Shown here piece by piece: positions 16,817-64,000 of a stretch of 64,000 nucleotides of DNA. Source of the DNA: Naegleria gruberi (lineage: Eukaryota); NCBI GenBank assembly GCA_000004985.1, contig GG738875.1; one strand, given 5' to 3'. The position numbers and the translations under genes were made by a program. The stretch's first letter is position 1; every line of letters begins with the position of its first letter. The notes below the pieces were generated by a model. That model did not search any database. It saw nothing but the letters and a program-made list of their open reading frames with translations, and was not told the origin of the DNA.

Positions 16817-16940
16817 AATTAAATTTTTATATTTTAAAAGGAATGAGGTTGGATTGGGTAATTAGCTATTATTTCCATTAAAAGCTATAAATTAAATCTA
16901 GAATGAAATTAAGCTGAATCTCATGCCAAAATTATATAAA

Positions 16941-18958: not shown

Positions 18959-19016
18959 GTGTTAATAAATTTATTCCTAGTAAATTGTTTAAATCAAAAT
19001 TGTTGGTGAAAACTGG

Positions 19017-21421: not shown

Positions 21422-21741
21422 ATTCATTATATGAAAATTATGATATTGAACGAGTACAGAAATTATGTTTATATTTTATTTCAGTCATCGTTGGATGAAA
21501 TATTTGAATGATACGAAAGGTGAAAGTGTTAATGAAAATCCACCTTAATCCTCATTCAAGTTTCATTCAAATCCAACATTGTAAACTGGCAAACTAGCTT
21601 CCACTTTTCCAATCACCTTCCAATAACACTCCATTTTTAATTTGAGCCACTAAATGATTTAAATTGCCTCCGGAGCTCAAGAATACTCCACACAAAAAAA
21701 CAGCAACAATATTCAACATTCTTCATACAAAAGAATACAAA

Positions 21742-22530
21742 ATGCTTTTCCAACAACCTGTACATACTGGCAGCAATTTTACCATTCCATTTGATGGAAC
21801 CATTGAAAAATTCACCTCTACCTTTCCAATATCTTTAGTGAATAGAGTACACCCCGATCAATTTCAATCTACATTAGAAAAATGTAATTTAGTGATGAAG
21901 AAGCATATGGACAAGATTAAAGAGAGTGATAAGAAAGTGTTGTGGGTTATGTTGGCATTCATTGGCTTGATGATATTGTTAATTTTATTTCCAACTCTTT
22001 TCGTTACTGTCATTATTCCTGTTGGTGATTCTGATGCTTGGATTCCTGCAGTTTTCATTCCAATATTTGCATGTATTCCAATGATTGGAATTATTATTTA
22101 TTCATCTCGTAGAATGCAACAAATCAAAGCCATGCATGTAGAATGTAAGAAGGAAGTTGAAGAGCTATTGGCACAAGAGAATTCAATGTACTTCCAATTT
22201 GGTGTTCAATGGATCTTGAGATATGACGGTATTGAAGCTATTGGCAAGGTCAGATATGGTGTCTATAGGCATTTAAATACCATGCCAAGCTTGGAGATTT
22301 TGACCAATCAAGCAATGTATATGGTGCAACAACCTAATGTTATGGTGCAAGGTAGTTCTGACATGATGCCAATGTATCAACAACAACAAGCTATTTATGT
22401 AGTGCCACCAACTAGTCAACCACAACAACCAACAGTTTATGAACAAGAACCACACAGTGTAACTTATCAACAAGTGAATCAATACCAAAAGGAAAATGAT
22501 AATCAACCACTGTTAGGTAATAGAGTGTAA
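21742..22530 (+). CDS. Hypothetical membrane protein with a Q-rich C-terminus.
   Basis: ORF with two or three hydrophobic spans (LWVMLAFIGLMILLILFPTLFVTVIIPV, AVFIPIFACIPMIGIIIY) and a Q/P-rich tail. The first ATG is at 21742 and the upstream frame is open back to 21664. Confidence 0.5.
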   Translation: MLFQQPVHTGSNFTIPFDGTIEKFTSTFPISLVNRVHPDQFQSTLEKCNLVMKKHMDKIKESDKKVLWVMLAFIGLMILLILFPTLFVTVIIPVGDSDAWIPAVFIPIFACIPMIGIIIYSSRRMQQIKAMHVECKKEVEELLAQENSMYFQFGVQWILRYDGIEAIGKVRYGVYRHLNTMPSLEILTNQAMYMVQQPNVMVQGSSDMMPMYQQQQAIYVVPPTSQPQQPTVYEQEPHSVTYQQVNQYQKENDNQPLLGNRV

Positions 22531-22729
22531 ATTATTTTTGTAAATAAAAATTGTAAATATTAAAAATAATACAATTTTAATATTCCATAAACTCAGAAAG
22601 GGCAAGAAAGGCTCAGAAAGTTCATCATGCTAAACCTTGCTATGTTTTTAATTAAGGTGGCTGGATACAAAATTATTTAAGTGGTAATAATTGTTATTGT
22701 GGTTGTTAGGAAGAATTCCTCAACAAAAA

Positions 22730-23177: not shown

Positions 23178-24983
23178 TTATTTTACAACCAAGTATTTAA
23201 TCTCTTTTGGAAGAGTAAAGTTTGAAACACCAGTATTAATTGCTCGGATAGATGTGATTTTTGGACAATTTTTGGAAATGCTTAATATGCTATTATTTGT
23301 GATTGGATTTTCACTTAAATCAATCGTCTCCAATAGTGGTAGCTCTTTAGAAATTGCTTCAACAAATTTGTCATTAATATCTTGATTGATAAGTGTGAGA
23401 GTTTTCAAATTTTTGAGTTGGGATAAACGTTCAACACTGAAAATTGGAGTTCTGAAAATATTCAAATCCACCAAATCACACATGACATCTGTGGACACTT
23501 CATGAACTGCTTCATAAGTCCCAAGTTTAAGCTTTTTCAAGGAGGCTATAGTGAGAAGCTCACTAAAACTGTCACCTATTCCGCATGAGGTGATTTCTGC
23601 TGTTTTAATAGGCATTCCTGCAAGATATTTAAGCATTCCTGGCTTGATTTTTTCATGATCCAAGCTAATTGTACTCAACTTTGAACAGGAACTCAAATTT
23701 TCAAAGAATTCTCTTTGAGTATCGTCTGGAGGGCTATCGTAAAGTGTTGTATATCCATGAAGGGAGCCACCATTTTCTCCTTTAAGTATTGATTTGACAG
23801 TTCTAATATTTGGCCAATTTTTAAGAGCTTTTGAAAAGCGGAAAATTGAGGTGACACTTGTTTGAATATCTAAAGTGGTTAATAAAGAAGAATTAGCAGA
23901 AAATTCTGTAAAGTCTTCATCTTTTCCTGCACTGTGACCTCTCCATCTGAATATTCTCAACTTTGGAAATTTAAGTTTACAGAATCTGTTCATTTCACAC
24001 ATATCACTTGAAGGAACTTGAAGGATTGTAACATCTTCCAAATAAGGTGCCATCACTTCCAAGGTTGAAACCAAAACTTCTGAAGGTAATTGTCTTACAT
24101 TAAGACTTGTGATGTTTTGTACAGGTAATAGTTTAAGAGTTTTCTTTGTTTGGGTCAATGCTTGTTGGGAATCTGTGACAGTGGTATCATGTAATAATTT
24201 AACATATGGGACCTTCATTGCAATCTTTGCACCATTGGCTGCCAAGCATTGAGTCATCCTCAAAAGTTCAGATCTATGATACATTTTAGAACCATCCAAC
24301 TCCAATCTTCTAAAGAGAAACTTTGGAGAGTCTCCCTGTCCAGATCTTGTAAATTTACCAAAATACAATTGATTAAACTTTCTAACATTGGAACCACATG
24401 ATTGATCGAATAATCCTCCATAATAGTCCAAAATAATGAGCAACACTTCACTAGGAAGTTTACAAACAAGTCTGTTCAATTCATCTTCCAATTGTTGAGC
24501 TTTAGGAAGTGGTGTTTTTGGTTTCACTGGAACATTGGCAGGTTGTTGCTTACTAACAGGTGGAGCCTTTGTTGTTGATGAGGATGTGGTTGTACTACCA
24601 GTTTTGGTCCTTAATGCTGAAGATGTTTTTGATATGAATGTTGCCTTTGGTGATGAAGATAGACTTGATGGTTTGGAACTTGATGAAACCTTACTAGTAG
24701 TAGTTGTCGCCACAGGTTTGGTTGCACTTGGTAAAGATGATGATGTCTTGCCGGCATTACTTGTTATCTTTGTTACATTACAGCTTGAAGTTGTTGTTGT
24801 TGTGGTTACTGCCTTTGGAGTAGGACTGTTTGACAATGATCTATTATTACTCGTTCCCGAAGAGAATGTCTTTGTACTTGAAGTGGTTGTTGTTGTGCTG
24901 CTGCTAGAAGTTTTGCTTGTTGTTGTTTTTGAGGGAATCTTTGAGGGGGTAGTTGTTGAGGGAGTGGATTTGGTGAGGGCCAT
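23178..24983 (-). CDS. F-box-like / leucine-rich-repeat protein with a mucin-like Ser/Thr-rich N-terminus.
   Basis: The first 190 aa or so are almost pure S/T/P. An F-box-like LVCKLPSEVLLIILDYYGG follows. The C-terminal half has a leucine-rich periodicity (LxxLxL...N). The ATG follows an A8 run. Confidence 0.6.
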   Translation of the reverse strand: MALTKSTPSTTTPSKIPSKTTTSKTSSSSTTTTTSSTKTFSSGTSNNRSLSNSPTPKAVTTTTTTSSCNVTKITSNAGKTSSSLPSATKPVATTTTSKVSSSSKPSSLSSSPKATFISKTSSALRTKTGSTTTSSSTTKAPPVSKQQPANVPVKPKTPLPKAQQLEDELNRLVCKLPSEVLLIILDYYGGLFDQSCGSNVRKFNQLYFGKFTRSGQGDSPKFLFRRLELDGSKMYHRSELLRMTQCLAANGAKIAMKVPYVKLLHDTTVTDSQQALTQTKKTLKLLPVQNITSLNVRQLPSEVLVSTLEVMAPYLEDVTILQVPSSDMCEMNRFCKLKFPKLRIFRWRGHSAGKDEDFTEFSANSSLLTTLDIQTSVTSIFRFSKALKNWPNIRTVKSILKGENGGSLHGYTTLYDSPPDDTQREFFENLSSCSKLSTISLDHEKIKPGMLKYLAGMPIKTAEITSCGIGDSFSELLTIASLKKLKLGTYEAVHEVSTDVMCDLVDLNIFRTPIFSVERLSQLKNLKTLTLINQDINDKFVEAISKELPLLETIDLSENPITNNSILSISKNCPKITSIRAINTGVSNFTLPKEIKYLVVK

Positions 24984-35719: not shown

Positions 35720-38290
35720 ATGCATCAACACCTGGGTGATTCAAATGATATTCATATTAAGGGAGTTTTATCTTTTGAGGAAGTTAAAAGGATGAGAAAT
35801 TCCATCAAAAGCACCCTTCTCACAAAGAATACATCCTTTTATTATGGAGAACCTGATACGACATCTTCATCTTTTAATGAAAAGAAGGAGGTTGAATCAC
35901 CCTTTCAAGCCTCTGAACGACTTCAACAACACATTCCAAATTGGATAAAGGAATCAAAGGAGAAAATAACAAAAGCAGGATTGTGGACTGATTTAAAGGA
36001 AGATATCCGAACAAGAGTACAATTAGCAACACAAGAACAAATTGAAATCAGAAGAGAGATCTCCGATAAGATGTTAACAAATGGAGGTGTTGTTCAAATG
36101 ACTTATAGTCAGAGAAGAAGAGTGAAAGATCTAATGGGAAAATGTATAACAGGTGATCAAAAGTATGATAGACTTGTTGAGGAAGCAGAAGAAATGATGA
36201 AGGATAACACTGCCATTCCCTTACAAGAGGTTGAGAGGAAAGATGAAAATGTAAAGAAAGAACCAGAGGAAGTGATTTCTAAAATGTTATCGAATTATCC
36301 TTGGTCTTTTATGCGAAATAATTTATCAGGATGTTTGTTGCACTCCTTTCCAAGACTTGTAAGAAGACAATTGTGGCACTCGGCTTTCAGAGATGAAGCA
36401 ATAGGATCAGAGATTGAAAGATACAAACAAAAAAAGAAGGAAAAGGAACCTCTACCAAAGGATTACTATCCTATCATTGATAAGGTCATCCAAAACAAAA
36501 TTGAGCAACAACCATTTATTAAGGATTATTCTAACGGAAAATTATGTAAAGAGGTTTTCAAACCAGTGTTGGAATTATTGCTTTTTAGAACGGAAGCTCC
36601 TGTAATGGATAACTTGTCTCAAGTTTCAGATCTTATTAATGTAAATGGACCTTTGAATGATAGCACAATCAAACAATTTGTGCTGAAAACTGTTGAAAGA
36701 TATTCTAATTATTTAGCTTCCATTTTCTGCTTAATGGCTACTCTGTATGGATGGGAAAATGTTGTTGAAAAATATAAGGCCGTAGATGAATTCCATTTCT
36801 ATTCAGAGAAAATCAGTGGGTTTTTAATATTCCACATTCAGACCTTCCACCAAATCGATCCATTCAAGGATCGTAAATTGTACTATAATATGAACTTGAT
36901 ACCTGAGTCTATTGTAAAGTCATTCGTCCATGCAACAGAACAAAAGGACACAGTTCTACTCAATCATATCAGTTCCATTGAGGATGGTGTAAGATCTTTC
37001 CTCAAACCAATCACTAGGTTGTTTGTTTCATTCGTTGAAAACAATGTATCTCTATTCATTATTGAACAATTTTTATTTACAAACTTTAAGCCTGCAGTCA
37101 TAGGTTCTATGACGTCTGCTATTGCCTTGATTCTCAGACAGCAAATACTTAAATGTGACACTCCACTCGGTTTGCAAATGCTATTAAAACAAAATGTCGC
37201 AAGTATAACAGAACCTGACTTGTTGGAAGTATTAGACAATAATTTCAGAAAGTACTTTACTGAAACTCACGGAATAGATATATATCCAAAGGAGTTTGTG
37301 GAAATTTCAGGCCTAAAAGGAGAGAAGGCAACTCTTCTGTTCACGCAAGATACCTCATCTCTGGCTCCTCCTGACAAATTGTCAATAATCAAGGCAGCTC
37401 TTCAATTGGAAACAGATCAAAGGGATGAGAAAGAAATGCTATTTATTTGGAATTCAATTTGGGAGAAAATTGATGCAGAAACAACATTTTTATTTCCATA
37501 CAAGGATGTGAATTTTACTCTTGTATTACCTTCCAAAAAATCCAAAATACTTAAGGAAATATCTTTTTATGATGTGCCAGATATGGTAGTACAATACTCC
37601 TCTAACAAGTTAATTTATATTGACATGGTAAGGAGAGGATTAGCGGAGGAGTATAAACAAAGATTGGCTCAGTATATTAAGGATTCTTTGGTTTACAAAC
37701 AGACAGACTTTTCTAAGGAGATGGACGAAAATCCAACTGTTGAAATTGAATACAATTACCTTGACATGCCATTCAAAACAAAGTTTTTGGAAGAAAAGTT
37801 AATGACAACAGATAAGGAAGAACTGTATGAAATATTGGATGAGAGATTTAAACAATTAGACTCATTTGTTTGCGGTTTGGAGATCCAAGAAATAGCATCC
37901 CAATTGTCAAAGACTTGCGAAGCAAAAATTAGAGCAAAGAGGGAGCACGAATTGAAAGCAAAGGAGCAATTGCTTCAAAAGATTACAACTGATTTGGAAA
38001 AGGAAAGTTTTGCAGAGCTGTCGAAGGTGTTGAAAGAAGTCATGTCAGGAGTTAACATTTTCTTCAAAGGAACTGAACAAGAACAAAGCAAAATTGATAA
38101 GATTACTGCTGATGAACGAGAAGAGAGATCCTACATTAGAGAAGCTACAGGTAGAATTATTAGCACATACGATTATAATAGGATTCCAAAGAAGAGCAGA
38201 CAAAAGTATGACAAGATTATTGAAAAGAAGAAGCTAAGCAATCAGAAAAACAAAAAGACAGGCATGTTTTCAAGAACCAACAAGAAATAA
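35720..38290 (+). CDS. Hypothetical 856-aa protein, possibly a degenerate TBC-like domain.
   Basis: The exon is clean and intronless, and the ATG follows AAAAAAA. The block RLVRRQLWHSAFRDE resembles the TBC RxxxW start, but the catalytic IxxDxxR and YxQ fingers are not evident. The C-terminus is a K/E-rich coiled coil. Confidence 0.55.
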   Translation: MHQHLGDSNDIHIKGVLSFEEVKRMRNSIKSTLLTKNTSFYYGEPDTTSSSFNEKKEVESPFQASERLQQHIPNWIKESKEKITKAGLWTDLKEDIRTRVQLATQEQIEIRREISDKMLTNGGVVQMTYSQRRRVKDLMGKCITGDQKYDRLVEEAEEMMKDNTAIPLQEVERKDENVKKEPEEVISKMLSNYPWSFMRNNLSGCLLHSFPRLVRRQLWHSAFRDEAIGSEIERYKQKKKEKEPLPKDYYPIIDKVIQNKIEQQPFIKDYSNGKLCKEVFKPVLELLLFRTEAPVMDNLSQVSDLINVNGPLNDSTIKQFVLKTVERYSNYLASIFCLMATLYGWENVVEKYKAVDEFHFYSEKISGFLIFHIQTFHQIDPFKDRKLYYNMNLIPESIVKSFVHATEQKDTVLLNHISSIEDGVRSFLKPITRLFVSFVENNVSLFIIEQFLFTNFKPAVIGSMTSAIALILRQQILKCDTPLGLQMLLKQNVASITEPDLLEVLDNNFRKYFTETHGIDIYPKEFVEISGLKGEKATLLFTQDTSSLAPPDKLSIIKAALQLETDQRDEKEMLFIWNSIWEKIDAETTFLFPYKDVNFTLVLPSKKSKILKEISFYDVPDMVVQYSSNKLIYIDMVRRGLAEEYKQRLAQYIKDSLVYKQTDFSKEMDENPTVEIEYNYLDMPFKTKFLEEKLMTTDKEELYEILDERFKQLDSFVCGLEIQEIASQLSKTCEAKIRAKREHELKAKEQLLQKITTDLEKESFAELSKVLKEVMSGVNIFFKGTEQEQSKIDKITADEREERSYIREATGRIISTYDYNRIPKKSRQKYDKIIEKKKLSNQKNKKTGMFSRTNKK

Positions 38291-49655: not shown

Positions 49656-51089
49656 TTACTCATAGCATCTGTCATAATATTCATTGATTGATGAATGTGA
49701 AATACAAGCCACAAATTTTTCTCTACTCATATCATAATACTCCTTAATGGTATCAAAATTGGCGTCAGGATTACACCTCACAATGTTTGCATAGAGAACC
49801 AATTGATGAATCAATGAGTCCTTTTTCTCAATAAATTGACGATTAACAAAATTGTGAACTCTTCGTTCAGACCAGTTATGAATTTTCTCATAATCTTGGT
49901 TCCTTCTCGTATTAATAATTTCCACATACATCAATTCAGACAATATTTCATAATTTACAAGGTCATCCAAAGAGTTACATCCTTGAATGGAAATTCTCAA
50001 AAGTTTGGGAAATCTCTTCCTTGTTATTGCAGATAGAATATTCCTCTCCAATTTTCCAGTATCTATCTGTAAATAATAATTATTCTCTGTTGAAGGAAAT
50101 CTGATTGTTAAATCACGAACATTTGAAAATTCTTCGTGTCCTTCCAGGAAATTGTCATACTCCTCTCCAGTTTCATAAGATGTTACGAAAGAAAAGCATA
50201 GAAACTGAGCATGTTTCGGAATTGTAAACTGTTGATAATTCTTGTTGAAATTGATTGAAATGGCCACATAAATTGGCTGCAATGTTTCAAATATGATAGA
50301 GTCTTCTTCAAAATTATACTCCAAATCAATTAATAAACCAAGTGAGCTTGAATCCATAAAATTATCGGTAAATAAACCTTTCGAAAATAGATAACATCTT
50401 TCTAAAGTTTCATAACAGCTTTCCCCACTATGCCTTTCACTATCGAAATATGAAACCATATCAAGAGATAATATCAATGCCTTATGTAGAAACAAATCAT
50501 ACGGATCCAGTTGAGTAATTTGTTTGATTTTCTCAAATTTTGACTCTGAAACCATTAATTTCTGAACTCTTTCTTCGAATAATTTGTTCACATCCTCATC
50601 AATAAACTCATTTTCTATTTCATTCAAATCCACATCCTCAAAGGAATAACCAATACATTTCGACTTATCAATAATATCCTTATACTCTCGATTGGAATTC
50701 ATCTCAACTGCCTCTATCAATTTCTGCATTTTGACAAAAGGAATTGATTCGTAAACAGAAATGTCACCTCTTGCCAACGAAAATCCCTCAAAAGATTGAT
50801 ATCGTTTCCAATAAACAACCATCTCCAAAATATTCGAAACCTCCTTCCAGAAATCACCCATTTCAACCAGAAACAAATAGGTAGCCTTTCTTGAAATTGT
50901 TTTACACCATTTATGCACAGCTCTCACATTTTCCACATCCAAACCATTCAAAATTCTTGGATAAATCAAATTCTTAAATTTCATAATTTCATTATTATTT
51001 TGCAATAAAGAAAGATGAATCGGACCAAGCCAATATTCAAAAATACAATAACGCCAAATATCCAGTGGAAGGGAGAGAAGATGAGTCAT
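49656..51089 (-). CDS. Hypothetical protein with an N-terminal F-box-like motif.
   Basis: The N-terminus is LSLPLDIWRYCIFEYW. The 477-aa ORF is clean. The rest is unrecognised. Confidence 0.5.
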   Translation of the reverse strand: MTHLLSLPLDIWRYCIFEYWLGPIHLSLLQNNNEIMKFKNLIYPRILNGLDVENVRAVHKWCKTISRKATYLFLVEMGDFWKEVSNILEMVVYWKRYQSFEGFSLARGDISVYESIPFVKMQKLIEAVEMNSNREYKDIIDKSKCIGYSFEDVDLNEIENEFIDEDVNKLFEERVQKLMVSESKFEKIKQITQLDPYDLFLHKALILSLDMVSYFDSERHSGESCYETLERCYLFSKGLFTDNFMDSSSLGLLIDLEYNFEEDSIIFETLQPIYVAISINFNKNYQQFTIPKHAQFLCFSFVTSYETGEEYDNFLEGHEEFSNVRDLTIRFPSTENNYYLQIDTGKLERNILSAITRKRFPKLLRISIQGCNSLDDLVNYEILSELMYVEIINTRRNQDYEKIHNWSERRVHNFVNRQFIEKKDSLIHQLVLYANIVRCNPDANFDTIKEYYDMSREKFVACISHSSINEYYDRCYE

Positions 51090-52249: not shown

Positions 52250-53678
52250 TTATTTGAACAACTTCTTCAAGCTCATGTTGTGTTCGTCTCCTCTCTTTGT
52301 TACCTTAGCGACAGCCATTTCCAAATCTTCTTGAGTAACGTGGACACGTCTTTCACGCAAAGCAAACATACCACCTTCTGTACAGGTAGCCTTGATTTCA
52401 GCACCAGAAGCACCTCCAAGCATTGATGCAATCTTTCTGAGATTGATACCACGAGTCAAATTCATCTTTCTGGAGTGAATCTTAAGAATATCTAATCTGG
52501 CCAATTCGTTTGGATTTGGGAATTCAATTTTACGATCAATTCTACCTGGTCTTAACAAGGCAGGATCAAGAATATCAATACGATTTGTAGCCATGATAAT
52601 TTTGATGTTTTGTGTAGATTCGAAACCGTCCAATTGGTTAAGTAATTCCAACATGGTTCTTTGTACTTCACTATCACCACCTCCTTTACCACCTTCTGTT
52701 CTCGTACTACCAATACTGTCAATTTCGTCCATGAAAATAATAGATGGGGCATGTTCACGAGCCATGACGAACAATTCTCTGACCATTCTACTACCTTCAC
52801 CAATGTATTTCTGTACCAACTCTGAACCAGAAACACGAATAAAAGTACAATCTGTGTGGTGAGCAACAGCTCTAGCCAATAAAGTCTATTCCAATCATAC
52901 AATTATAATGTTGTTACACAATTTGTAGAGTGATCACAAGTATTCCGAATCATTAATGATGATGATGAAATACAATTATTATACAATAATAAAAAGATCC
53001 AAAGTCAATATAAATACAATCAAATAAAACAAACTCACCTTACCAGTACCTGGTGGACCATACATGATAACTATAGATTTAAAATGTTAAATAAATATTA
53101 AATACTAATGATGATCACTTACCTCCTTTTGGTTGAGCAATACCCAAGCTTTCAAAAAGTTCAGGGTGTTTGATTGGAAGTTCGATCACTTCCTTAACTT
53201 CTTTAATTTGTTCATCAAGACCTCCGACCATTTCATATGTAGCATCAGGAACCTTTTCTACTTTCATCAAACTGACCAAAGGATCAATCTTATTAGGGAG
53301 AATTTTATGGAGAGCATAGGAATCATTTCTGAGAGCAACTCTTACACCTGGTGATAAATCCTTCAATTCAATAGATTTGTCAATATCCACAATATATTTT
53401 CCTTCTTGGCTGATCTTGATAAGAACCTTCTTTTTTCCCATAACTTTAACAACTTCACCAACATGGCTTCCTGGTTCTTGGAGTTGTTGTAATTCTTCCT
53501 TCAAGCTCCTCACACGTCCGTTCAATTCATTTCTTTGTGCTTGTAAACGTCTAAGATTTTCGATTTTATCCTTTAATACAATTTCCTTCTCTTGAATCTT
53601 GGCAATGTAATAATTTTTCAATCCATTGGCTGATGGTGGTTTTGATACCAGTGTATTTCCAGAAGATGATGAGAGCAT
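52250..53678 (-). CDS. 26S proteasome regulatory AAA-ATPase (closest to Rpt1/PSMC2): join(complement(52250..52885, 53039..53070, 53123..53678)).
   Basis: Exon 1 ends ...[26 protein letters not shown]...[59 protein letters not shown] 52-nt intron follows. The 32-nt exon 2 encodes [11 protein letters not shown] (Walker A). A 153-nt intron follows. Exon 3 contains [31 protein letters not shown]...[11 protein letters not shown]...[13 protein letters not shown]...[23 protein letters not shown]. Confidence 0.85.
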
Positions 53679-54083
53679 TATTTTTTTTGTTTGATGTTTC
53701 TTCATACAATGGCATTCCGTAAAAATAGAATCTATTTTTATTTTATATTTCCAAGACAAAGGTGTACACCTTGTTTGATTTACAGAATAATCCTTATTGA
53801 TGTTAATTGTTTCATTTCACTGATGAATTTGAGTTGTTCTAAAGAGTCAAACAAATGTTCAGAAAATTCAACATTAACAATACTATTCATAAATTGACTT
53901 TTCATTCCGCGTCAGACATTTCTCTTCCATATTTCCTCCGAATTCATTAATTGATGATTTTCAAAATCATGTCTGTTTCGTTTACTCATTTTTTAAATTG
54001 GAATACTCAACATTAACCTCTGTGAAAGAAGTTGATATCTCTTTATTACCAATCATATTCAATTGTCTGACATCTTCAACTAT

Positions 54084-54295: not shown

Positions 54296-54545
54296 TTTTT
54301 ATTTTCACTTAAGGTTCCTTTAATGGAAGACCTTCTTATTTTACATAATAATAGATCACCCCAAAATTCTGTAAAAGTGAAAGTGTTTAAATGTGCCTTT
54401 TATGGCCAGTGGAACCAACATGCAAAAATTTCGTGCGTACAATCTCATCAGTTTGAGCGCTTTGAATTTCCTTTATCTTTCCCGCTCAAAACCATTTTTA
54501 CTTTTTTCAAAATCAAAACAAAAAAGCAAAACTCAAACAATAACA

Positions 54546-55430
54546 ATGAAATTCGAAAAGAGACCATCAAAAGAAAGAGGACATTATGATGCAGGTTGGC
54601 TCGATACCTATCACACATTTTCCTTCTCCACTTATAGAGATTCAAAATTTAATCAATTCGGTCCATTGAGAGTATTGAATGAGGATTGTGTGGAGCCATC
54701 GAGTGGATTCCCAATGCATCCTCATCAGAATTATGAAATATTTTCGTATGTCTTGTCAGGAAATTTGACTCATTCAGATTCTATGGGAAATACAGAAATT
54801 TGTAAGAAAGGTTCAGTTCAGTTTACTTCTGCTGGAAGTGGTATTTATCATAGTGAGTTCAATAGGGACAAGAATGAATATGTTAAATTCTTACAAATTT
54901 GGGTGAAGCCAAGAAGCCTTGATGCGAAACCAAATTATCAAAAGATGAGTTTCTCACCAGACCAAAAACTGAATCAATTGTGTTTAATGATTGCTCCAAA
55001 GGAAAGTGCCAAATTGAAGGAAGAAGAATTAATTGGAATTGATCAGGATTTCTATGTACTTTCTAGCTTATTAGAATCTGGAAAGAAGGTCAATCATACT
55101 TTATATTCTGGTCGTCAGATTTATGTTCATGTTCCAATTATGAGTAGAACTGGATCAGTATCCAATTCTAAATCAAATGGTTTGTTATCTTCTTTACTTC
55201 GTAAGACAACCAACCCTTTTATTACCAATTATTTAAAAACTAAATTTTCAAAAACAAAAGAACAAGTTTCCATCAAACTTTCCAATAATAGTAATGGAAA
55301 TGGTGAACTTATTACATTGAATGAAGGTGATGGCTGTTCCATTCAATCAGATTCACTGTCCGAAGAGGAATTAATCATTGAGGGTGTTAATTCCATGACT
55401 GAATTTGTCGTGATGGATATGAAAAAGTAA
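54546..55430 (+). CDS. Pirin (cupin superfamily).
   Basis: The N-terminal cupin has its metal-binding histidines in context: GFPMHPHQNYEIFSYVLSG and ...GSGIYHSEFN. The first ATG is in a CAATAACAATG context at 54546. Confidence 0.8.
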   Translation: MKFEKRPSKERGHYDAGWLDTYHTFSFSTYRDSKFNQFGPLRVLNEDCVEPSSGFPMHPHQNYEIFSYVLSGNLTHSDSMGNTEICKKGSVQFTSAGSGIYHSEFNRDKNEYVKFLQIWVKPRSLDAKPNYQKMSFSPDQKLNQLCLMIAPKESAKLKEEELIGIDQDFYVLSSLLESGKKVNHTLYSGRQIYVHVPIMSRTGSVSNSKSNGLLSSLLRKTTNPFITNYLKTKFSKTKEQVSIKLSNNSNGNGELITLNEGDGCSIQSDSLSEEELIIEGVNSMTEFVVMDMKK

Positions 55431-55717: not shown

Positions 55718-58700
55718 TTAAGCATTAATCTTGAGTCTTCTACCGGCTTGGGCTGGTTTTTTCTTCTTGTCTTCTACCTTTTTGAAACTTAGGGTTGGTT
55801 GTGCTGAATATTCTTCTAGCTTTACAAAACTCTCTGCTTCTCTAACCTTACGATCTTGTTCTGCTAAATGTTTGATGAGTGATATACATAGACTTTTGGT
55901 ATGACATAAACAAACAGAATCAGGGATAATATCTCCATCTTCTATGGCAACAATTTCATTTTGAGAAGTAATAGGCCACAGACTATCCATAATAATATAG
56001 AAATTCAACCCAATATTTGTTTGTTGGTAGAAAGCAGGAATCAAGAACCTTATAATAAATCTTTTGAGAACTGTTGTAAGGTTATTGATATTGACATTGT
56101 TTTCTTGGCATGATCTAATAATTCTTTGCACAATATTTTCTTCCAACTCTATAGTATACAAGTCACTGAGATAATTAACTTCAAAATCAAAGATAACTTC
56201 TTCTACATATTCAAACAAGTTGACAATCTTGTTGAGAGTAAAATTAGCGAAAAACTGTTCCTTGTCATTCAAGTTGATTTTCCAATCATAGCAAAATGTA
56301 GAGACTGTAACATCAGGATTAAAGTTCACCAAATTCATGACTTCCAATAGTTTTTGTAAGGAACCTTGGATTTTTTTCAATCTTGGCAAGTCGTTGATTA
56401 GTATATTCACTTTGGTTCTTTCAGAGTCGTCCAGAGGTATTGGATTTGGAATTTTCTTTCTGGCGGCCATATCTGCATTGCTACCAAAAGATTCACCAAT
56501 GTACTTGATTTTTCTCAAGTTTTCAAAATCCAATCGCTTTTTTCCTAATAAATACTTTGAGGCCAAAGCAAATTCAATCTTATCAAAAAGGTATCCAACT
56601 GTTGTACCTTTTCCATATTCATAATTTTTGTATGAAAAAGTAATGGTTAAATCTTCCAAGTATTCTGGGTTAATAATTACCAGATCTTTCTTTTGAGCTT
56701 TTTGTACTGGAATAGTAGGTAACCCTATGATACCATTAATAGATTTCAAAAAGGCAAGATTTGCTGATTTCTCAGCATTTTGTTCTGCAATATCTATAAA
56801 ATTATTTTGTACTTCAGCATAGCCTTGCAAGGCAGCACAAATATACAACCCAAATGGCTCTTGCTGATCTTCTATCAAGAAGAATGATAGCATTTCTGTG
56901 TCAATCTTTTTCTTTGATTTAGGTTGTTTACATCCATAATTTACAGCTTTTTCTGCTTTCCATTCTGTAACTACCTTTCCATAGAGTTCTTTCAAGCCAT
57001 TAGTTTCTGCATAATACTTCATTTCTGTTTTTTCAGCAGTTGCTCGTTCAATAGTGTTATCACATTTATCCATCAATAAATTGGAAAAAGTGATAAGGTC
57101 GAAAAGGCTTTCGATGTGATGTAGCTCTTTTTCATTAGTCAAGTAGGCTTTCAGGAAAGGATACAATTGTGCATTCTCTGGATTAGACATGAATAATGCC
57201 TTCATGCCTTGGACAGAAGGAGATGATGTAATTCTAAATTCTGTAAATTTGTTAATTTGGGAATTATTTGGCGTACATGTTTCTTCAATGATTGCTTGGA
57301 GACTACTGTTTTCTTCGGACCTGGTAGAATTCATTTTTATATCTCTGATTGAGAGGTTAATGTCTCCCAGAACTCTGGAGGTATATTCTATCAATCCATT
57401 TTCGAAAATGGCTCTCTTGTCCTCTGTATCTAACCTTTCATTATTTCCAAATAAATAATCCAAATTTGAAATAATACATTGCTGCAATAGGAAGCACAAA
57501 TTTTCACCTTGTTGATCTAAAATTTGGGCCAATATATTCCAATCCTTAGCAGCTTTTTCATTAAAGTAATCAATAGGGTTATTAAGTTGATTCTGGATGA
57601 AGAAACCTCTAATTTCATCTATGCTAACTAAATTGATATCTAAGCCATTGAGGATAATTGAATTAATAAAGAATTGCCAAACTCTGAACATTGCTGGAGG
57701 GAATTGTCTTACGGTATGATAATCATCATTAATTGCAGACATTGTACATCCTTTTTCGTTGGATGAATCGGTTCCGTCTCTTTTAGCTTCATCAATTCTA
57801 CTTCCTTGAATAAGTTTGTGACCTTCTCCTCCAAGTGTTGCTCCACATGTTGGGCATCTAGCAGTACCATTAGGTTGTCCACAATTTCCAATCAAATATA
57901 CATAACCACAATTACATCTGTATCTACTGTGACCTCCATCTTTGGTGTTGATAGCCTTCAAAATACCACCTAAAATATCGTGTTCTGCTGTAACTACGTA
58001 TGTGGAACGGACTGTATTTGGATTTTTGATGAAGATGGAAATAGGGTTTTCTGGTATGCATACAGCAAGACACATAACACTAATTCTAATAACATAACTG
58101 CAATCCCTTACAGTTGCTGATCTAAGTAAGCGTGTCACAAGGTTTTTTACAGATTTTGAAAAGCTTTGGAAGCTGCTTGCAAAGAATTCCACACAGAGAC
58201 GTAATGTTGAATCGGTAATTTGTGAAAAGTGAATATTGTTAGTAATCAATCCCATCAATGTGTACAACAACTTTGGATTGGACTTTGCCTCTTGAATAAG
58301 TTCCAACATATCTCTTGTATTATTCAAGTAGTACATTTCATCAAAAGCTTTTTCTGCTTCTTTGTATCTAGGTAGTGACCTAAATATGTTATAACCAAGT
58401 GTGTCGAACGATTTGTTTGTTAAATCAACATCTAATGATCCAGAGATATCAGACTCCACAAATTCTTTAAAATCTAACCAATTATCGAAAGATTGTTTCA
58501 CACATTTGAGAAGATAATTTTTTGCGTCTTCGTCTTGAGATAAATAATTGGAAATTATTGATCCAGAAATAGTGGTTTGAAGGTCTTCTTGACTTGAAAT
58601 ATTTTTCAAATGGTGTCTAATTGATGCAACGTAGTAGGCTCTTTCAATATCTGGAACTGACTCACTATTAGGAGAATTGATTTTGTTACCTAATATTCTT

Positions 58701-61700
58701 AATTCTTCTTCATTGGTCAATTCTTGGTCTGAAACCAGTTCTTCAAGTACATCTATAAACACATAGTAAAGAGGGCAATATGGGTTATTCACAAGAAGAT
58801 TGTTTAGAACCCTCAGGTTCTCAAAATTTCCCTCCTCTAACTCTTCTATATGATCAACACAAATCTTATAGACAATTTGCGTCAAATATTTAACATCTTG
58901 GATTTCAACAAGTTCTCTACATACTACCTCCAATAACTCTTCTGTAAGCTCTAGTCTTGAAATAAATACCATCTTGGATTGGAATAGGTTTTGGGACTTT
59001 GATAAAATTTGCAATATGTTTTCTATTAATTTTGGATCTTCAAGATTGCAATCATAGCAGAGAATCTCTGTACATATTTGTTGGATTTCATATGGGTATT
59101 CCAGTAAATAGTGAGAGAAATCTTTCAAAATTTTTAACAAAGTAGCTGAAACATTCTCTTCCAACAATATTGGCAAAACTGTTGCTATTTTGTCTTTCCA
59201 TTCATTGTTAGGGGTTCTAGTTCCGTCTTGAAGCAGAGATAAGGTGATTATATCAAGTAAATCATCCAAGCATTCAATATCCTCAGGTATCTCAATAGAA
59301 TTTCCACAACAATACTTGATTAATTCTACAACAGCAAGTAATGTTTTTTGGTTATTCCAAACCATTAGTATTAATCTTTCTTTTGGAGAGAGTACTAAGT
59401 TGATCTCGAATAAACCAAGTATGATATTTTCGAATATTTGAGCGAATTCTGAGTTCAGCCCCAGTTCTTGAGCAGTGATTGTCAAAAAATCTCTTTTAAG
59501 AAGTTCTTCTGAGTAATCTTGCAGGCCAAAAACGCATTCAGATGACTCTATCAAAGAAAGAAGTAGAGGCTCTAACTGTTGTTCTTGATTATCACCTTTT
59601 TCAATACTGGAATTTTGTTTTAACATTTCCAACTTGTCTTTGAGTTCCTTATAGATTTCACATTGCCACTTACTATATGGAAGTCTCAAGCCCTTTATCA
59701 ACATAATTTTAGAATTATTAGCTCCATTATTGTGGTATTTAGCAGTGATATTCTTCCATAAAGCTCTCAACTTCGGATCTGCAATGAAAAAGGTCTCAAG
59801 AGCTGAATGTTGTTCAATGAATTTCAAAATATTGAGCAATTTTCGTTGAACAAGGTCTTGCATTTCGTTTTTGATAGCATCTATCAGACAACCAGATTCT
59901 GCAAGCTTTTTCTTGTCAAGGGCAACATGTTTCCTCCAATCAAACTGAACCTTTTGCAATTCTTCATTAAGAATTTCTCCAATAAATTGTAAAAATTCGG
60001 CATCTTCAATTATCTTGGAAGATAATGTACTTATGTATTCAATATTTACGGCAAAGTAGTCTATCTTCATTAATGTTGCCTGAATGATATCTTTCAAGAT
60101 ACTTTCAACATTGTAAAATTCACTCGAGAACATATCATGGATATCTAATAAGTTGGTCTGGTCAAAATTAGGGGACAACTCGTCAATAGTCACTTGTTTC
60201 CACCCATTCATGAAATTTAATTTCCAATCTTCATTTGCATTCTCATAAATATCTCTGGAGATGTGTAAAATGAGGAATACCTTCTTGTCAGTCCTGTCAG
60301 AGTTTTGAATATGATGATCTACAATAAATTTTACCATCGGTACAAATTTACCATCCAAATGAGATTCAAAGTGTATGGTCAACAGCCCATTTTCTTCATC
60401 ATTAAAGAAATCTTCGACTTTTTTAGCAAATTCCCTCTCTGTATTAAACTCTCTTACCCTAATGGAGGATAACCAGGTAAAGTTTAATTCTGTCAAAATA
60501 TGTGAAAAGGTCATAATCATGTGAGCAAAACCATCACAATTGTTGTAGTAGTCTAATAGATTATTATGTTTGTCTAATTGGTATCTATTCAACCAGTTGT
60601 CACATTCTTCCTTAGATACGCTGGAATATGCCAATCTGACTATACCATCAAAGGTTGAAGTTGCGATCAGTGCTTCTTTGCAAATTTCTACACAGTGTTC
60701 TACTGAGGTAGTTGAATTAGTATTTGCAAGAACCAGTGATGATAGTGTATCTGAAGAATAGGATGGAAACATGTCGTTAACAGTAAAAACGTTACTATCT
60801 AAATTAGTAATATTTTCTACCCATTCATTTAAACGCATCACACATTCATTCACTTTAGATTCACTAATATTCTCAAAGTTAAGAATTTGTTTTTCGAATC
60901 GGTTCAAAAAAGGAGGATCACAGGTTGCCAGACGCTTTTGGTCAACTAAAACTATGCATCTAAAATTCTCGTTAACGTGGCACATAGGGTTACTATGTGG
61001 GCCAATAGCAATTCTACAATTTCTTCTTTTAGCGACATAAGTATAGTTTTGATTCAGCATATCGTATAAGCTGCCATAGACACTATCTAAATCTTTCAAA
61101 ATCAATGTGTACCCTTCTTCCATACAATAAATAATCTTATTCAAAACCACATAGCTGTATTCTTCTGTCTTGTCCAAATTGAACTGACTTCCATAAATAA
61201 TTTCAGGACTTCTATTAAGGAACTCTTTGTAATAGTACGTAATGATATCTAATGCAGAATCACTATTAGTAATTAACATTAGATGTCTGGCATTCTTATC
61301 TTCAATATTTTCTTTGATTAGTTCCAATATTGGCAAGTCTGATGGTACAGATTCAGTAATTGATGCTTTTTCAAATAATATTTTCTTGAAATTCATAGCC
61401 GAAGCTGAAAGACCTCCAAAATTTCTATCTATAGCTCTACAAAGACTAACAGCAAAATTTTCTTCTTCTTCAATGATAACACTTTTGACAAGTGAGTAGT
61501 AATCTCTCAAACCATGGAAATTGTTATATTTTTTGTTTGAAATAAATTCGTAGTAGGACTTAGAAAGATAATCTAATAGAAGTTCTATTGTATCTGTCTT
61601 TTCAATATGATTATTTTCAAATAAAATTGTTTTTGCAATTTCCTTTAGCTCATTTTCATCAGCTTCAGGTCTAGAAACATGGACTGCTCTGTTCATTTTT

Positions 61701-63943
61701 GCTGCGTCCAACCTCCAGTTTGAGATACCAACCACGGCAACATCCCTTTTCTTTGGTTCTAACAATGCGTGTAGAGCTTTTAGAGGGTTGTGTGCTGAAA
61801 TTTCAGCTAAACCAATTTCATCCAAAATTACTACTGGTATAACTTTTTCTTCTTTTTCATTAATTTTCAAATATCCTCTTGCCTTATCAAATACCTTGAG
61901 AATACCCTCTGATGTAGAAGACTCTGAACCTTGGAATGCAATGAAGATGAGTTGTGGGAGAGTTTTGAAGTATTTATCTATTGAATCTTCTCCTCTTAAA
62001 TTACTAGTCAAAAGTTGAATAGCTAAACTTTTGCTACAACCTGGCTTACCAACAACAAAAACAGGAAGCTTGTTCAAAATGCACACCAATATTACGAAAA
62101 TATTTTCTTTCAAAGACCTATTCCAGGCAATATTTGGTGGAATTTCCATTCTTCTTAGATAACTTGTCTGCTCTTCATCAACTATCCTTACAAAGTCTTC
62201 TTTTGAAATTCTTGGTAAATGTTTACAAACAGTAGTTAGATAATTTTCTCTATATTCTAACTTTGCTAATCTAGAGTAATAACAAACAGAAAGTGCTAAT
62301 ACAACGCTAGAAATATCATATTTGTCATCACGTTGGTTTTCTTGTATCCACATGATTTGGTTTGCTTTTTTCAATGGTTCTGATCTTTTTTTAAGGGTTT
62401 CTAAGAAATACTGACACAAAACAATAAATCTATTGACGTCTCGCAAACTAACGCTAGAAGCATCTTCCAAATCTCTTACAAAAGCTTGGGATTCACAAAT
62501 TATTGTGCAGAGAATATGTTTTGGAAATTGTATGGTTAATCTTCCAAGCATTGTTTGGATATAACTCATTTCGTCAGTTTGAGATAAAAAGCCATAATCC
62601 CAAATATAATCAATTAAACAATCAGGTAAAGGATTGACTCTATAAGCAAGGTCTGATGCTTTATCTTTTTCTAGAGCAGATGTATAAATATGCTTCCTTG
62701 TTCTATATGGATTGCATGCAGCAATAACTGAGATATTAATTGGTAGGCTGATTCCACGTATTGACTTTAAAGTTACAATTTCTGAGACCAAACCTAAATA
62801 GTCACATGTGTTAATTTCATCCAAGAATACCAAATGCTTTGTATTAGGATTGTTATAAGCTTGTTCTATAACTGCTTCCATAAAGCTGATAATTATGTCA
62901 GGTGTTGTTCCAGCATGGAAATTAAGTAAATTAAAGGAGGCACCTGTTTTTTTAGCTAAAAACTCTACCAGACTTGTTTTTCCACAACCTGTTTCACCTG
63001 ATATCACAACTGGTATACAGGCTTCTACTCTTAATAGTATTAACATCATTTTCAACAAATTGTCTGCAGTCATGGCATATTGACCATCATACTCTGTAAT
63101 AGATCCGGCCATCTTTCCCAACTCAAATAACAAGGCTTCTTGATTGAGAGAGGAGTAATCTGGAAGAGAAACTTTTTGGCTTTGCAAAGTGTCAAAAATA
63201 TCGGAATGGGTTTGTTGAAGGAAAGACAAGTCTCTATATAGAGCTGTGATAGTGGAATCGTACTTATGGAAAGCAACAATAAGGTGATTACTTTCCTCCC
63301 ATCTAACCATTCCAGATTCTTTAAACAACACCACATCTGATTTTGATCCCATCACATGATGTTGTTGTTGTTTTCTATTTCCATGCACAGATCTGGTTGA
63401 AAATTCAGAATACACATCCATTAGTACTTTAACTAGTTTGCTTCTAATTTTTTGGGATTCTGTAACATGTGTAATTTGTTGGGTTTTTAAGAAAACTGAC
63501 TGAGAAAATTTGATAAATTGTTCAGCAAGAACATTAATGAATACGTGCATTAAAGAGTAATTGATCTCCTTCTTATTTTTAAAAAAGTACTTTTGAATCA
63601 AGAGTCTACATTCTTCATCAGATACAACGGTTGCATTTGCATTTGGGCCACTGAATATAATATCTTCCGTATCTATTGTGTCATTATCCAACGCTTTCAG
63701 GTAATTAAATGTGACTTGACTTCTAGATAATAATGATTTGTTGAAAACTAAATTTTCTAAACGAAATTCAATATCTTTCTTATTAATCAAATATGTTTCT
63801 CGAATGGTCAAGAAGTTCCAAAATCTGGATTGGCTCTCTAATTCAATAAATATATCAAGGTTATTAACAGGAATTTTGAACATAACACGGTCATCTATCA
63901 CCATACCAAAAGTTATAATCTCGAACAAAAGATTATTCAGCAA
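55718..63943 (-). CDS. Giant RNF213 (mysterin)-like protein with dynein-type AAA+ modules and an RZ-type zinc finger. A 2,741-aa ORF whose start lies near the window edge.
   Basis: Two AAA Walker A sites, VVISGETGCGKTSLVEFLAKKTG and VFVVGKPGCSKSLAIQLL, with hhhhDE Walker B sites FLDEINT and VILDEIGLAE. Far downstream lies YRCNCGYVYLIGNCGQPNGTARCPTCGATLGGEGHKL. This matches the RZ-finger pattern (C-x-CG-x-Y-x-IG-x-CG-x-P...C-x2-CG-x3-GG-x2-H) that, as far as I know, is shared only by RNF213 and ZNFX1. The AAA type points to RNF213. Confidence 0.7.
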   Translation of the reverse strand: MLNNLLFEIITFGMVIDDRVMFKIPVNNLDIFIELESQSRFWNFLTIRETYLINKKDIEFRLENLVFNKSLLSRSQVTFNYLKALDNDTIDTEDIIFSGPNANATVVSDEECRLLIQKYFFKNKKEINYSLMHVFINVLAEQFIKFSQSVFLKTQQITHVTESQKIRSKLVKVLMDVYSEFSTRSVHGNRKQQQHHVMGSKSDVVLFKESGMVRWEESNHLIVAFHKYDSTITALYRDLSFLQQTHSDIFDTLQSQKVSLPDYSSLNQEALLFELGKMAGSITEYDGQYAMTADNLLKMMLILLRVEACIPVVISGETGCGKTSLVEFLAKKTGASFNLLNFHAGTTPDIIISFMEAVIEQAYNNPNTKHLVFLDEINTCDYLGLVSEIVTLKSIRGISLPINISVIAACNPYRTRKHIYTSALEKDKASDLAYRVNPLPDCLIDYIWDYGFLSQTDEMSYIQTMLGRLTIQFPKHILCTIICESQAFVRDLEDASSVSLRDVNRFIVLCQYFLETLKKRSEPLKKANQIMWIQENQRDDKYDISSVVLALSVCYYSRLAKLEYRENYLTTVCKHLPRISKEDFVRIVDEEQTSYLRRMEIPPNIAWNRSLKENIFVILVCILNKLPVFVVGKPGCSKSLAIQLLTSNLRGEDSIDKYFKTLPQLIFIAFQGSESSTSEGILKVFDKARGYLKINEKEEKVIPVVILDEIGLAEISAHNPLKALHALLEPKKRDVAVVGISNWRLDAAKMNRAVHVSRPEADENELKEIAKTILFENNHIEKTDTIELLLDYLSKSYYEFISNKKYNNFHGLRDYYSLVKSVIIEEEENFAVSLCRAIDRNFGGLSASAMNFKKILFEKASITESVPSDLPILELIKENIEDKNARHLMLITNSDSALDIITYYYKEFLNRSPEIIYGSQFNLDKTEEYSYVVLNKIIYCMEEGYTLILKDLDSVYGSLYDMLNQNYTYVAKRRNCRIAIGPHSNPMCHVNENFRCIVLVDQKRLATCDPPFLNRFEKQILNFENISESKVNECVMRLNEWVENITNLDSNVFTVNDMFPSYSSDTLSSLVLANTNSTTSVEHCVEICKEALIATSTFDGIVRLAYSSVSKEECDNWLNRYQLDKHNNLLDYYNNCDGFAHMIMTFSHILTELNFTWLSSIRVREFNTEREFAKKVEDFFNDEENGLLTIHFESHLDGKFVPMVKFIVDHHIQNSDRTDKKVFLILHISRDIYENANEDWKLNFMNGWKQVTIDELSPNFDQTNLLDIHDMFSSEFYNVESILKDIIQATLMKIDYFAVNIEYISTLSSKIIEDAEFLQFIGEILNEELQKVQFDWRKHVALDKKKLAESGCLIDAIKNEMQDLVQRKLLNILKFIEQHSALETFFIADPKLRALWKNITAKYHNNGANNSKIMLIKGLRLPYSKWQCEIYKELKDKLEMLKQNSSIEKGDNQEQQLEPLLLSLIESSECVFGLQDYSEELLKRDFLTITAQELGLNSEFAQIFENIILGLFEINLVLSPKERLILMVWNNQKTLLAVVELIKYCCGNSIEIPEDIECLDDLLDIITLSLLQDGTRTPNNEWKDKIATVLPILLEENVSATLLKILKDFSHYLLEYPYEIQQICTEILCYDCNLEDPKLIENILQILSKSQNLFQSKMVFISRLELTEELLEVVCRELVEIQDVKYLTQIVYKICVDHIEELEEGNFENLRVLNNLLVNNPYCPLYYVFIDVLEELVSDQELTNEEELRILGNKINSPNSESVPDIERAYYVASIRHHLKNISSQEDLQTTISGSIISNYLSQDEDAKNYLLKCVKQSFDNWLDFKEFVESDISGSLDVDLTNKSFDTLGYNIFRSLPRYKEAEKAFDEMYYLNNTRDMLELIQEAKSNPKLLYTLMGLITNNIHFSQITDSTLRLCVEFFASSFQSFSKSVKNLVTRLLRSATVRDCSYVIRISVMCLAVCIPENPISIFIKNPNTVRSTYVVTAEHDILGGILKAINTKDGGHSRYRCNCGYVYLIGNCGQPNGTARCPTCGATLGGEGHKLIQGSRIDEAKRDGTDSSNEKGCTMSAINDDYHTVRQFPPAMFRVWQFFINSIILNGLDINLVSIDEIRGFFIQNQLNNPIDYFNEKAAKDWNILAQILDQQGENLCFLLQQCIISNLDYLFGNNERLDTEDKRAIFENGLIEYTSRVLGDINLSIRDIKMNSTRSEENSSLQAIIEETCTPNNSQINKFTEFRITSSPSVQGMKALFMSNPENAQLYPFLKAYLTNEKELHHIESLFDLITFSNLLMDKCDNTIERATAEKTEMKYYAETNGLKELYGKVVTEWKAEKAVNYGCKQPKSKKKIDTEMLSFFLIEDQQEPFGLYICAALQGYAEVQNNFIDIAEQNAEKSANLAFLKSINGIIGLPTIPVQKAQKKDLVIINPEYLEDLTITFSYKNYEYGKGTTVGYLFDKIEFALASKYLLGKKRLDFENLRKIKYIGESFGSNADMAARKKIPNPIPLDDSERTKVNILINDLPRLKKIQGSLQKLLEVMNLVNFNPDVTVSTFCYDWKINLNDKEQFFANFTLNKIVNLFEYVEEVIFDFEVNYLSDLYTIELEENIVQRIIRSCQENNVNINNLTTVLKRFIIRFLIPAFYQQTNIGLNFYIIMDSLWPITSQNEIVAIEDGDIIPDSVCLCHTKSLCISLIKHLAEQDRKVREAESFVKLEEYSAQPTLSFKKVEDKKKKPAQAGRRLKINA

Positions 63944-64000
63944 GCAAGCATTTGATTGGGATAAATTTCTTATATCAATGTGTAAACAGTCTATATGTGA

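Follow-up and report, generated by a model that had tools for sequence, protein, structure and literature searches.

Does the giant open reading frame on the minus strand at the far end of this 64,000-nucleotide stretch of Naegleria gruberi DNA (contig GG738875.1; the whole stretch is called the window below) make this amoeba the owner of an RNF213-type ubiquitin ligase (E3)? An RNF213-like giant AAA+/RZ-finger gene in an AT-rich, protist-like genome had been proposed from the letters alone (the original prediction). The composition was as described, with a G+C content of 0.33 in DNA of N. gruberi, and the gene probably encodes a 3,300-residue giant AAA+/RZ-finger ubiquitin ligase of the RNF213 family. 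This identity, argued from sequence comparison, was upheld by an E-value of about 1e-123 for the AAA region against solved RNF213, by E-values of 4e-16 for the RZ finger and 4e-49 for the C-terminal profile, and by a Foldseek structure search that returned RNF213 only. In architecture the protein is a pared-down relative of RNF213, which in humans is an immune ubiquitin ligase.

The minus strand from 55718 to 64000 is a single unbroken frame of 2,760 codons (translated from base 64000 downward), which is still open at base 64000, the gene being cut by the window edge. The corresponding entry in the list of open reading frames (55718..63943, minus strand, 2741 residues) owes its TTG "start" at 63943 to the lister's first-start-codon rule. 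The windowed translation is 100% identical to residues 541-3300 of the N. gruberi protein NAEGRDRAFT_80150 (3300 residues), a "hypothetical protein" for NCBI and an "RZ-type domain-containing protein" for UniRef; the 5' 540 codons of its gene lie beyond base 64000. The windowed part, the 3' five-sixths of the gene, is one uninterrupted exon; the single 8.2-kb exon that had been proposed is therefore borne out within the window, but the gene continues for 540 residues past its edge. G+C content runs from 0.31 to 0.36 along the window and is 0.33 over the gene, and a chance origin of an 8.2-kb open frame in DNA of 33% G+C is excluded. Hence, the frame is real coding sequence. The scaffold that bears it is 396 kb in length. 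Residue numbers below are those of NAEGRDRAFT_80150 (P0001 in our collection of family proteins), whereas "window residues" are counted within the windowed protein.

55718..64000, minus strand: partial coding sequence comprising the final 2,760 codons and the stop codon (55718-55720) of NAEGRDRAFT_80150, from 100% identity and the open frame

When the windowed protein was searched with phmmer against all solved structures, the only matches were human and mouse RNF213 (domain independent E-value, i-E, of 4e-117). Window residues 290-1242 aligned to human RNF213 residues ~2377-3413, and a second, weak stretch covered window residues 1986-2500. (The human chains in the Protein Data Bank, PDB, have 5,247 residues with a 40-residue offset, C4505 appearing at 4545; native numbers are used here.) A 14-sequence full-length family profile matched human RNF213 with an E-value of 0 in two domains, the first at ~1072-3460 and the second at ~3580-5196 (i-E 2e-59). 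In Pfam, the windowed protein matched ZnF_RZ-type (58.8 bits against a cut-off of 27) and, at the first P-loop, AAA, AAA_5 and AAA_7. The GETGCGKT, GKPGCSKS, DE Walker B and RZ strings quoted in the original prediction are all present verbatim. The ring parts are assigned as follows.

63134..64000, minus strand: tail of AAA2 and connection to AAA3 (residues 541-829), from homolog alignment and the family profile
60275..63133, minus strand: AAA3-AAA6 part of the dynein-like ring (window residues 290-1242), from phmmer and Pfam
62975..62998, minus strand: AAA3 Walker A, GETGCGKT, with K881 equivalent to human K2426, from alignment to RNF213
62816..62830, minus strand: AAA3 Walker B, VFLDE, with E935 equivalent to human E2488 (human numbers from PMC11549300)
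62027..62050, minus strand: AAA4 Walker A, GKPGCSKS, with K1197 equivalent to human K2775, from alignment to RNF213
61817..61831, minus strand: AAA4 Walker B, VILDE, with E1268 equivalent to human E2845, from alignment to RNF213

The Walker A and B motifs of AAA3 and AAA4 were kept in all 14 of the aligned family sequences (one has a GDTGCGKT variant), and both modules carry full Walker A/B pairs in vertebrate RNF213 as well. AAA2 has a P-loop, SGVGKTE, at residues ~497-503, outside the window, and the sequence at its Walker B position, CLHIDI, where the window protein begins, lacks the catalytic glutamate. This combination is conserved in the 14-sequence alignment and is that of mouse RNF213, in which the AAA2 P-loop is present and the Walker B glutamate absent (PMC7311170). 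The 334 residues ahead of GETGCGKT in the window, which had been taken for an N-arm of about 300 residues, belong instead to the end of AAA2 and the beginning of AAA3. The likeness to the dynein heavy chain and to midasin/Rea1 lies in the six concatenated AAA modules and the Pfam AAA_5/AAA_7 families (PMC7311170); the features proper to a dynein heavy chain (DHC_N, the microtubule-binding stalk and Dynein_C) were not found by Pfam in the Naegleria RNF213-like protein.

The second diagnostic element is the RZ finger, which the original prediction placed about 1,100 residues beyond the AAA motifs; in fact the second P-loop precedes it by 1,378 residues and the first by 1,694. Its sequence, CNCGYVYLIGNCGQPNGTARCPTCGATLGGEGHKL (57812-57916, also read straight from the DNA), aligns residue for residue with human WYTCPNGHPCSVGECG...CIDC...GGIDHK. 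The roles given below are those of the human and mouse RZ residues (PMC11549300, bioRxiv 10.1101/2021.05.10.443411) carried over by alignment.

57797..57940, minus strand: RZ finger (Pfam envelope, PF20173, E=4e-16), from Pfam and alignment to human
57914-57916, minus strand: C2569, equivalent to human C4505, predicted zinc ligand, from alignment
57908-57910, minus strand: C2571, predicted substitute zinc ligand, from covariation
57902-57904, minus strand: Y2573, at the position of human H4509 (a zinc ligand in human, unconserved here), from alignment
57881-57883, minus strand: C2580, equivalent to human C4516, predicted ubiquitin-accepting nucleophile, from alignment
57854-57856, minus strand: C2589, equivalent to human C4525, predicted zinc ligand, from alignment
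57845-57847, minus strand: C2592, equivalent to human C4528, predicted zinc ligand, from alignment
57818-57820, minus strand: H2601, equivalent to human H4537, predicted general base, from alignment

Five of the six key human residues are kept, nucleophile and base among them; at the zinc site, the finger departs from the textbook form that had been described. The Cys-His-Cys-Cys (CHCC) site of RNF213 (C4505, H4509, C4525 and C4528) is not reproduced: its three cysteines, three of the four zinc ligands, are shared with vertebrate RNF213, and the histidine is Y2573. Two residues upstream of Y2573 is C2571, which is invariant in the 14-sequence family alignment. We examined every catalytic-type RZ finger, 78 in number, in the ~300 family proteins collected (P0001-P0299) and found that the second ligand was a cysteine at +2 in 49, a histidine at +4 in 17 and a cysteine at +4 in 12; no finger had two of these and none lacked all three. 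Given this mutual exclusivity, the Naegleria zinc site is likely a Cys4 (CCCC) variant of the human CHCC site, in which C2571 would replace the histidine.

From the RZ finger to the C terminus the resemblance to RNF213 was strong in both sequence and modelled structure.

55721..57796, minus strand: helical region after the RZ finger, predicted to be the rest of the RNF213 E3 module plus the C-terminal domain, from profile and AlphaFold2/Foldseek

Alignment A2 (NAEGRDRAFT_80150 residues 2540-3300 plus 13 homologs), used as a profile against the PDB, matched human RNF213 with an E-value of 4e-49 over native residues ~4479-5122; in the Naegleria protein the homology takes in the C-terminal 700 residues. 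The AlphaFold2 model of this part had a mean predicted local distance difference test score (pLDDT) of 65.8, with values of 70-90 over most of the helical part, and Foldseek matched it to nine RNF213 entries (E=3.4e-12 to 2.3e-7), the next match being at E=0.69. Profile and model thus both point to a C-terminal part of the E3 module and a C-terminal domain of RNF213 type. In mouse RNF213 the C-terminal domain in this region is the E2 docking site (bioRxiv 10.1101/2021.05.10.443411). The C-terminal half of the Naegleria protein also has a lysine-rich tail.

An RZ finger is common to the RNF213 and ZNFX1 families, with the same catalytic Cys/His logic, and an RZ finger alone would fit a ZNFX1-type protein. 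ZNFX1 is a superfamily 1 (SF1) RNA helicase that also carries zinc fingers of the NFX1 type and a Miz domain, and the Naegleria protein has none of the three. The check for SF1 helicase motifs that accompanied the original prediction gave no SF1 helicase or NFX1 zinc-finger signal: the Pfam helicase families scored beneath their cut-offs and at Walker A only; the whole protein of 3,300 residues has just two CxxC motifs, too few for NFX1-type fingers; and it follows RNF213 collinearly for over 3,000 residues. We rejected a ZNFX1 identity on these grounds and give it practically no weight.

The RNF213-family assignment is also that of the overall layout. Vertebrate RNF213 (mysterin; 6TAX, 8S24, 9G08) runs from a linker through a six-AAA dynein-like ring and a helical E3 region to the RZ finger and the C-terminal domain, and the Naegleria parts follow in this order, with a predicted helical scaffold in the place of the E3 region. 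The differences lie in size (3,300 residues in Naegleria against 5,207 in human), in the N-arm, CBM20 domain and RING, which the Naegleria model lacks, and in sequence, the AAA core being only ~30-35% identical and similarity from the hinge to the RZ finger undetectable. This last region was assigned by its position and its model.

57941..60274, minus strand: predicted hinge and all-helical scaffold, placed like the RNF213 hinge, E3-back and E3-shell

A profile of this middle region did not match RNF213 in the PDB at E<=0.01 or at E<=10. Its AlphaFold2 model is helical from end to end (pLDDT 59.5), and Foldseek ranked RNF213 first among the matches to it, weakly (E=2.5e-3). As for the RING, Pfam detected no RING family in the windowed protein at E<=0.1, and the RING pattern was unmatched: of the two CxxC motifs in the whole protein, one is within the RZ finger and the other is isolated, and the 17 cysteines and 10 histidines of the 765-residue middle region are unclustered. 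Judged by its sequence, the Naegleria protein has no RING, the domain to which RNF213 owes its name. The RING is dispensable for vertebrate RNF213 activity (PMC11549300, PMC7311170).

At the other end of the protein, the first 839 residues taken alone gave no PDB match, and residues 30-835 align with family members at E~1e-100. The alignment with homologs begins at residue ~30, which corresponds to residues 370-1090 of the homologs and to human residue ~1,400, in the linker (the mouse boundaries are 1-1290 for the N-arm and 1291-1774 for the linker; PMC7311170). The gene model of the N. lovaniensis homolog (P0095), predicted independently, starts at the equivalent of residue 52, and a truly short N-terminus is therefore supported. 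By jackhmmer, a CBM20-like N-terminal domain was found in fungal (Glomeromycota, Endogone), coral and unidentified members of the family (P0003, residues 179-250; P0138, P0144, P0152, P0293 and P0122), as it occurs in human RNF213 (PMC11549300), and was undetected in the Naegleria, fern, Cymbomonas, Andalucia and Epipyxis proteins. The annotated Naegleria model thus has neither N-arm nor CBM20 domain, and an upstream exon is still conceivable. Two explanations had been offered for the shortness of the protein. Sequence beyond the window does account for 540 further residues, but the complete annotated protein still lacks an N-arm. A minimal ancestral architecture is disfavoured: since a CBM20-bearing N-terminus is common to animal and fungal members, the short Naegleria N-terminus looks derived rather than ancestral and points to loss.

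The relatives of the Naegleria protein bear on both its origin and its activity. In the first homolog search the best 120 matches after NAEGRDRAFT_80150 itself were proteins of ~4,000 residues, mostly labelled metagenome, and the largest cluster of these includes Porites coral proteins. A bacterial origin of these matches was considered and rejected, given a gene-poor contig, a reverse transcriptase and the Porites proteins in the largest cluster. On one such contig (L001, ENA ERZ25073805, 2.5 Mb), a 12.6-kb intronless RNF213-like open reading frame at 10001-22657 lies in gene-poor DNA and adjoins a reverse-transcriptase reading frame. Several RNF213-like paralogs occur together on single large contigs in the match list; this clustering indicates a lineage-specific expansion in a eukaryotic host genome deposited as metagenome, the host probably being a cnidarian. 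An exhaustive HMMER search with the RZ and C-terminal segment against 1.84 billion representatives gave 509 clusters at E<=1e-3 and 114 at E<=1e-10. A complete CxC-type finger together with an RNF213-type core and C-terminal domain was present in Glomeromycota (Acaulospora, Racocetra, Cetraspora, Ambispora), Endogone, the fern Ceratopteris, the green alga Cymbomonas, the chrysophyte Epipyxis and the jakobid Andalucia godoyi.

These RING-less relatives, which databases call "hypothetical" or "RZ-type domain-containing" proteins, match the Naegleria protein over core and C-terminal domain with E-values from 0 to ~1e-228 and share a CxCG[YFE]...C[GT]...CxxC...GG..H finger. They differ in having 3,400-4,900 residues, with 900-2,000 of these ahead of AAA3, the Naegleria N-terminus being the shortest. 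None of them matches the RING pattern, which among the relatives was found only in two members with CHCC-type fingers, that of the mollusc Lottia and P0198. The original prediction regarded a homolog outside animals as of interest; such a homolog is real but not exceptional, as fungi, plants, algae and a jakobid have full-length relatives.

The top matches to the AAA core (37-38% identity) were of another kind, namely paralogs from cnidarians (Porites, Pocillopora, Nematostella) and amphioxus (the Branchiostoma "RNF213"), in which the N-terminal linker and C-terminal domain are also homologous to those of the Naegleria protein. In the coral, Nematostella and amphioxus paralogs P0011, P0012, P0055, P0084, P0093 and P0115 the CxC...CPxC knuckle is kept, and the catalytic Cys loop and the GG..H base are lost ("pseudo-RZ"). 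The pattern suggests repeated loss of ligase activity with retention of the AAA ring. These paralogs are probably not RZ ligases, whereas the Naegleria protein retains both the Cys loop and the GG..H base.

That the best named AAA-core matches of the first search were cnidarian and amphioxus proteins, and that the family is patchily distributed across eukaryotes, could suggest contamination or a gene recently acquired by horizontal transfer, its donor being an animal or another eukaryote. We think a non-native gene very improbable. The gene is embedded among Naegleria housekeeping genes on its 396-kb scaffold and has the G+C content of its surroundings, and the homolog in a second Naegleria species is just as short at its N-terminus. 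The AAA core is about equally distant from all other groups (42-46% identity, N. lovaniensis included). In a neighbor-joining tree of the AAA core (100 bootstraps), the mollusc (CHCC/RING), cnidarian-amphioxus and fungal groups were separate and Naegleria fell outside the animal and fungal clades, with weak support (<50); Naegleria and the jakobid Andalucia did not group together. Just one other relative from Naegleria was seen, P0095 of N. lovaniensis (3,202 residues), which is 33% identical overall and 45% identical in the AAA core and is either a fast-evolving ortholog or a paralog.

With a native RNF213-family gene in hand, a mechanism can be proposed by analogy with the mouse and human enzymes, for which alone ATP-gated transthiolation E3 activity with a Cys-reactive E2 and ubiquitylation of non-protein substrates such as lipid A are on record (PMC11549300, bioRxiv 10.1101/2021.05.10.443411). 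ATP binding at AAA3 and AAA4 would allosterically switch on the E3 module, a cysteine-reactive E2~ubiquitin would dock on the C-terminal domain, transthiolation would pass ubiquitin to C2580 on the flexible RZ loop, and H2601 would then deprotonate the acceptor, an amine or hydroxyl that might belong to a non-protein molecule. By alignment, all of the residues that this scheme needs are present; the activity itself is put forward by analogy with mouse and human RNF213. To the RBR, HECT and RCR (MYCBP2) ligases the resemblance is one of mechanistic analogy only, in that a cysteine takes ubiquitin from the E2 and a nearby histidine acts as general base; their folds are unrelated and they lack sequence similarity to the Naegleria protein.

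Several observations weigh against reading the Naegleria protein as a working RNF213-type ligase. The histidine on which metal binding and activity depend in human and mouse RNF213 is a tyrosine here, its replacement by a cysteine is predicted from covariation only, and the finger is of low confidence (pLDDT below ~60) in both AlphaFold2 models. Between ring and RZ finger lie ~770 residues whose sequence shows no likeness to RNF213 that could be detected, and the modelled fold resemblance of that region is slight. Family members are not all ligases, the cnidarian and amphioxus relatives having lost the catalytic cysteine and histidine by alignment, and even the P0095 finger, CNACGY...GNCG...CPSC...IGSSSNKK, lacks the terminal histidine. 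The absence of an N-arm is read from gene models, and because N-arm and CBM20 domain are absent, target recognition must differ from that proposed for the human protein. Finally, we found no description of RNF213 homologs in Naegleria, other protists or Dictyostelium in the literature searched; there RNF213 is called a vertebrate protein (PMC7311170), and the RZ finger is followed back only to choanoflagellates, via ZNFX1.

The alternative to which several of these points lead is an RNF213-family ATPase with dead or changed ligase function, a pseudo-E3 scaffold comparable to the paralogs of cnidarians and amphioxus. The H4509A substitution in human RNF213 and H4455A in mouse abolish activity (PMC11549300, bioRxiv 10.1101/2021.05.10.443411), many close relatives retain only the CxC...CPxC knuckle, and in Naegleria the RING is missing along with the histidine. 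We nevertheless consider a pseudo-E3 decidedly unlikely. The Naegleria protein keeps the nucleophile cysteine, the base histidine and four cysteines at ligand positions, its Pfam RZ score is twice the cut-off, the RING is not needed by the vertebrate enzyme, and the strict exclusivity of C(+2), H(+4) and C(+4) across the 78 fingers is what would be expected of a conserved ligand role.

Taking the protein as a probable RNF213-type ligase, we can only guess at its role: it may help a bacterivorous amoeba to fend off intracellular microbes, or it may have a lipid or energy-state function. An immune role is plausible but speculative, and a metabolic or lipid role is equally open. The mechanism could thus hold as proposed and serve a non-immune purpose, with the protein acting as an adenylate-charge sensor or lipid-droplet regulator, roles that have also been reported for RNF213; we regard this as a genuine possibility, though a somewhat doubtful one. 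The E3 activity of mouse RNF213 follows the ATP/ADP/AMP ratio and has been linked to lipid droplets (bioRxiv 10.1101/2021.05.10.443411). The Naegleria protein lacks the N-arm/CBM20 region, which is under positive selection in primates and is tied to pathogen recognition (PMC11549300), and its gene neighbours are housekeeping genes with no defence context. The low identity to the N. lovaniensis homolog, the patchy distribution and the lineage-specific expansions are, on the other hand, typical of conflict-driven genes, though not proof of conflict, and the present data do not discriminate between a non-immune role and immunity.

The whole AAA-ring/RZ/C-terminal domain machine exists in Discoba, fungi, plants and stramenopiles; its members can do without RING and N-arm, and CHCC and CCCC versions of the zinc site stand in for one another. 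The family thereby forms a natural experiment on what RNF213 cannot do without, supplies a smaller protein for structural and biochemical studies, and lets one begin to ask whether eukaryotes have defended themselves since early times by ubiquitylating the surfaces of microbes. A bolder scenario is that RNF213-type AAA+/RZ ligases are ancient, possibly as old as the last eukaryotic common ancestor, that the RING and the CHCC site are later animal additions, and that Naegleria has a working minimal version, made up of ring, scaffold, Cys4 RZ finger and C-terminal domain and devoid of N-arm, CBM20 domain and RING, with which the bacterivorous amoeba ubiquitylates non-protein surfaces of intracellular bacteria or giant viruses. 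Taken whole, we rate this as unlikely. Were it true, cell-autonomous "coat-and-tag" immunity would predate animals, and a 3,300-residue model enzyme, much easier to handle than the 5,207-residue human protein, would be at hand. As it stands, this is a homology-based annotation of a gene already public as a hypothetical protein, a useful but not startling member of a eukaryote-wide family and of moderate interest to questions of how RNF213-type ligases evolved and what their minimal architecture is.

Elsewhere in the window the genes are ordinary eukaryotic ones, and the G+C content is uniform at ~0.33. Besides those given below, these genes encode deoxyhypusine synthase, COX15, a WH1+PBD protein and an HMG-box protein. 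Three further open reading frames, at 35720-38290 (plus strand), 23178-24983 (minus strand) and 49656-51089 (minus strand), of 856, 601 and 477 residues, had no Pfam match at E<=1e-3 or 1e-4.

54393-55430, plus strand: pirin-family gene that converges on the RNF213-like gene, their stop codons being 288 bp apart
52250-52879 and 53115-53759, minus strand: 26S proteasome Rpt-type ATPase, two open reading frames with AAA/lid domains and an OB domain
63-11921, plus strand: true dynein heavy chain, a 3,952-residue open reading frame with DHC_N2, AAA_6 to AAA_9, the microtubule (MT) stalk and Dynein_C

The likely start of the pirin-family gene is the ATG at 54546, and an exact-sequence look-up of its product returned nothing on record. 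The AAA/lid and OB domains of the proteasome ATPase fall on two separate open reading frames, which implies one gene split by an intron. The dynein heavy chain gene is cut by the window start, DHC_N1 being matched only from profile position 377, and its occurrence beside a dynein-like RNF213 relative is a coincidence.

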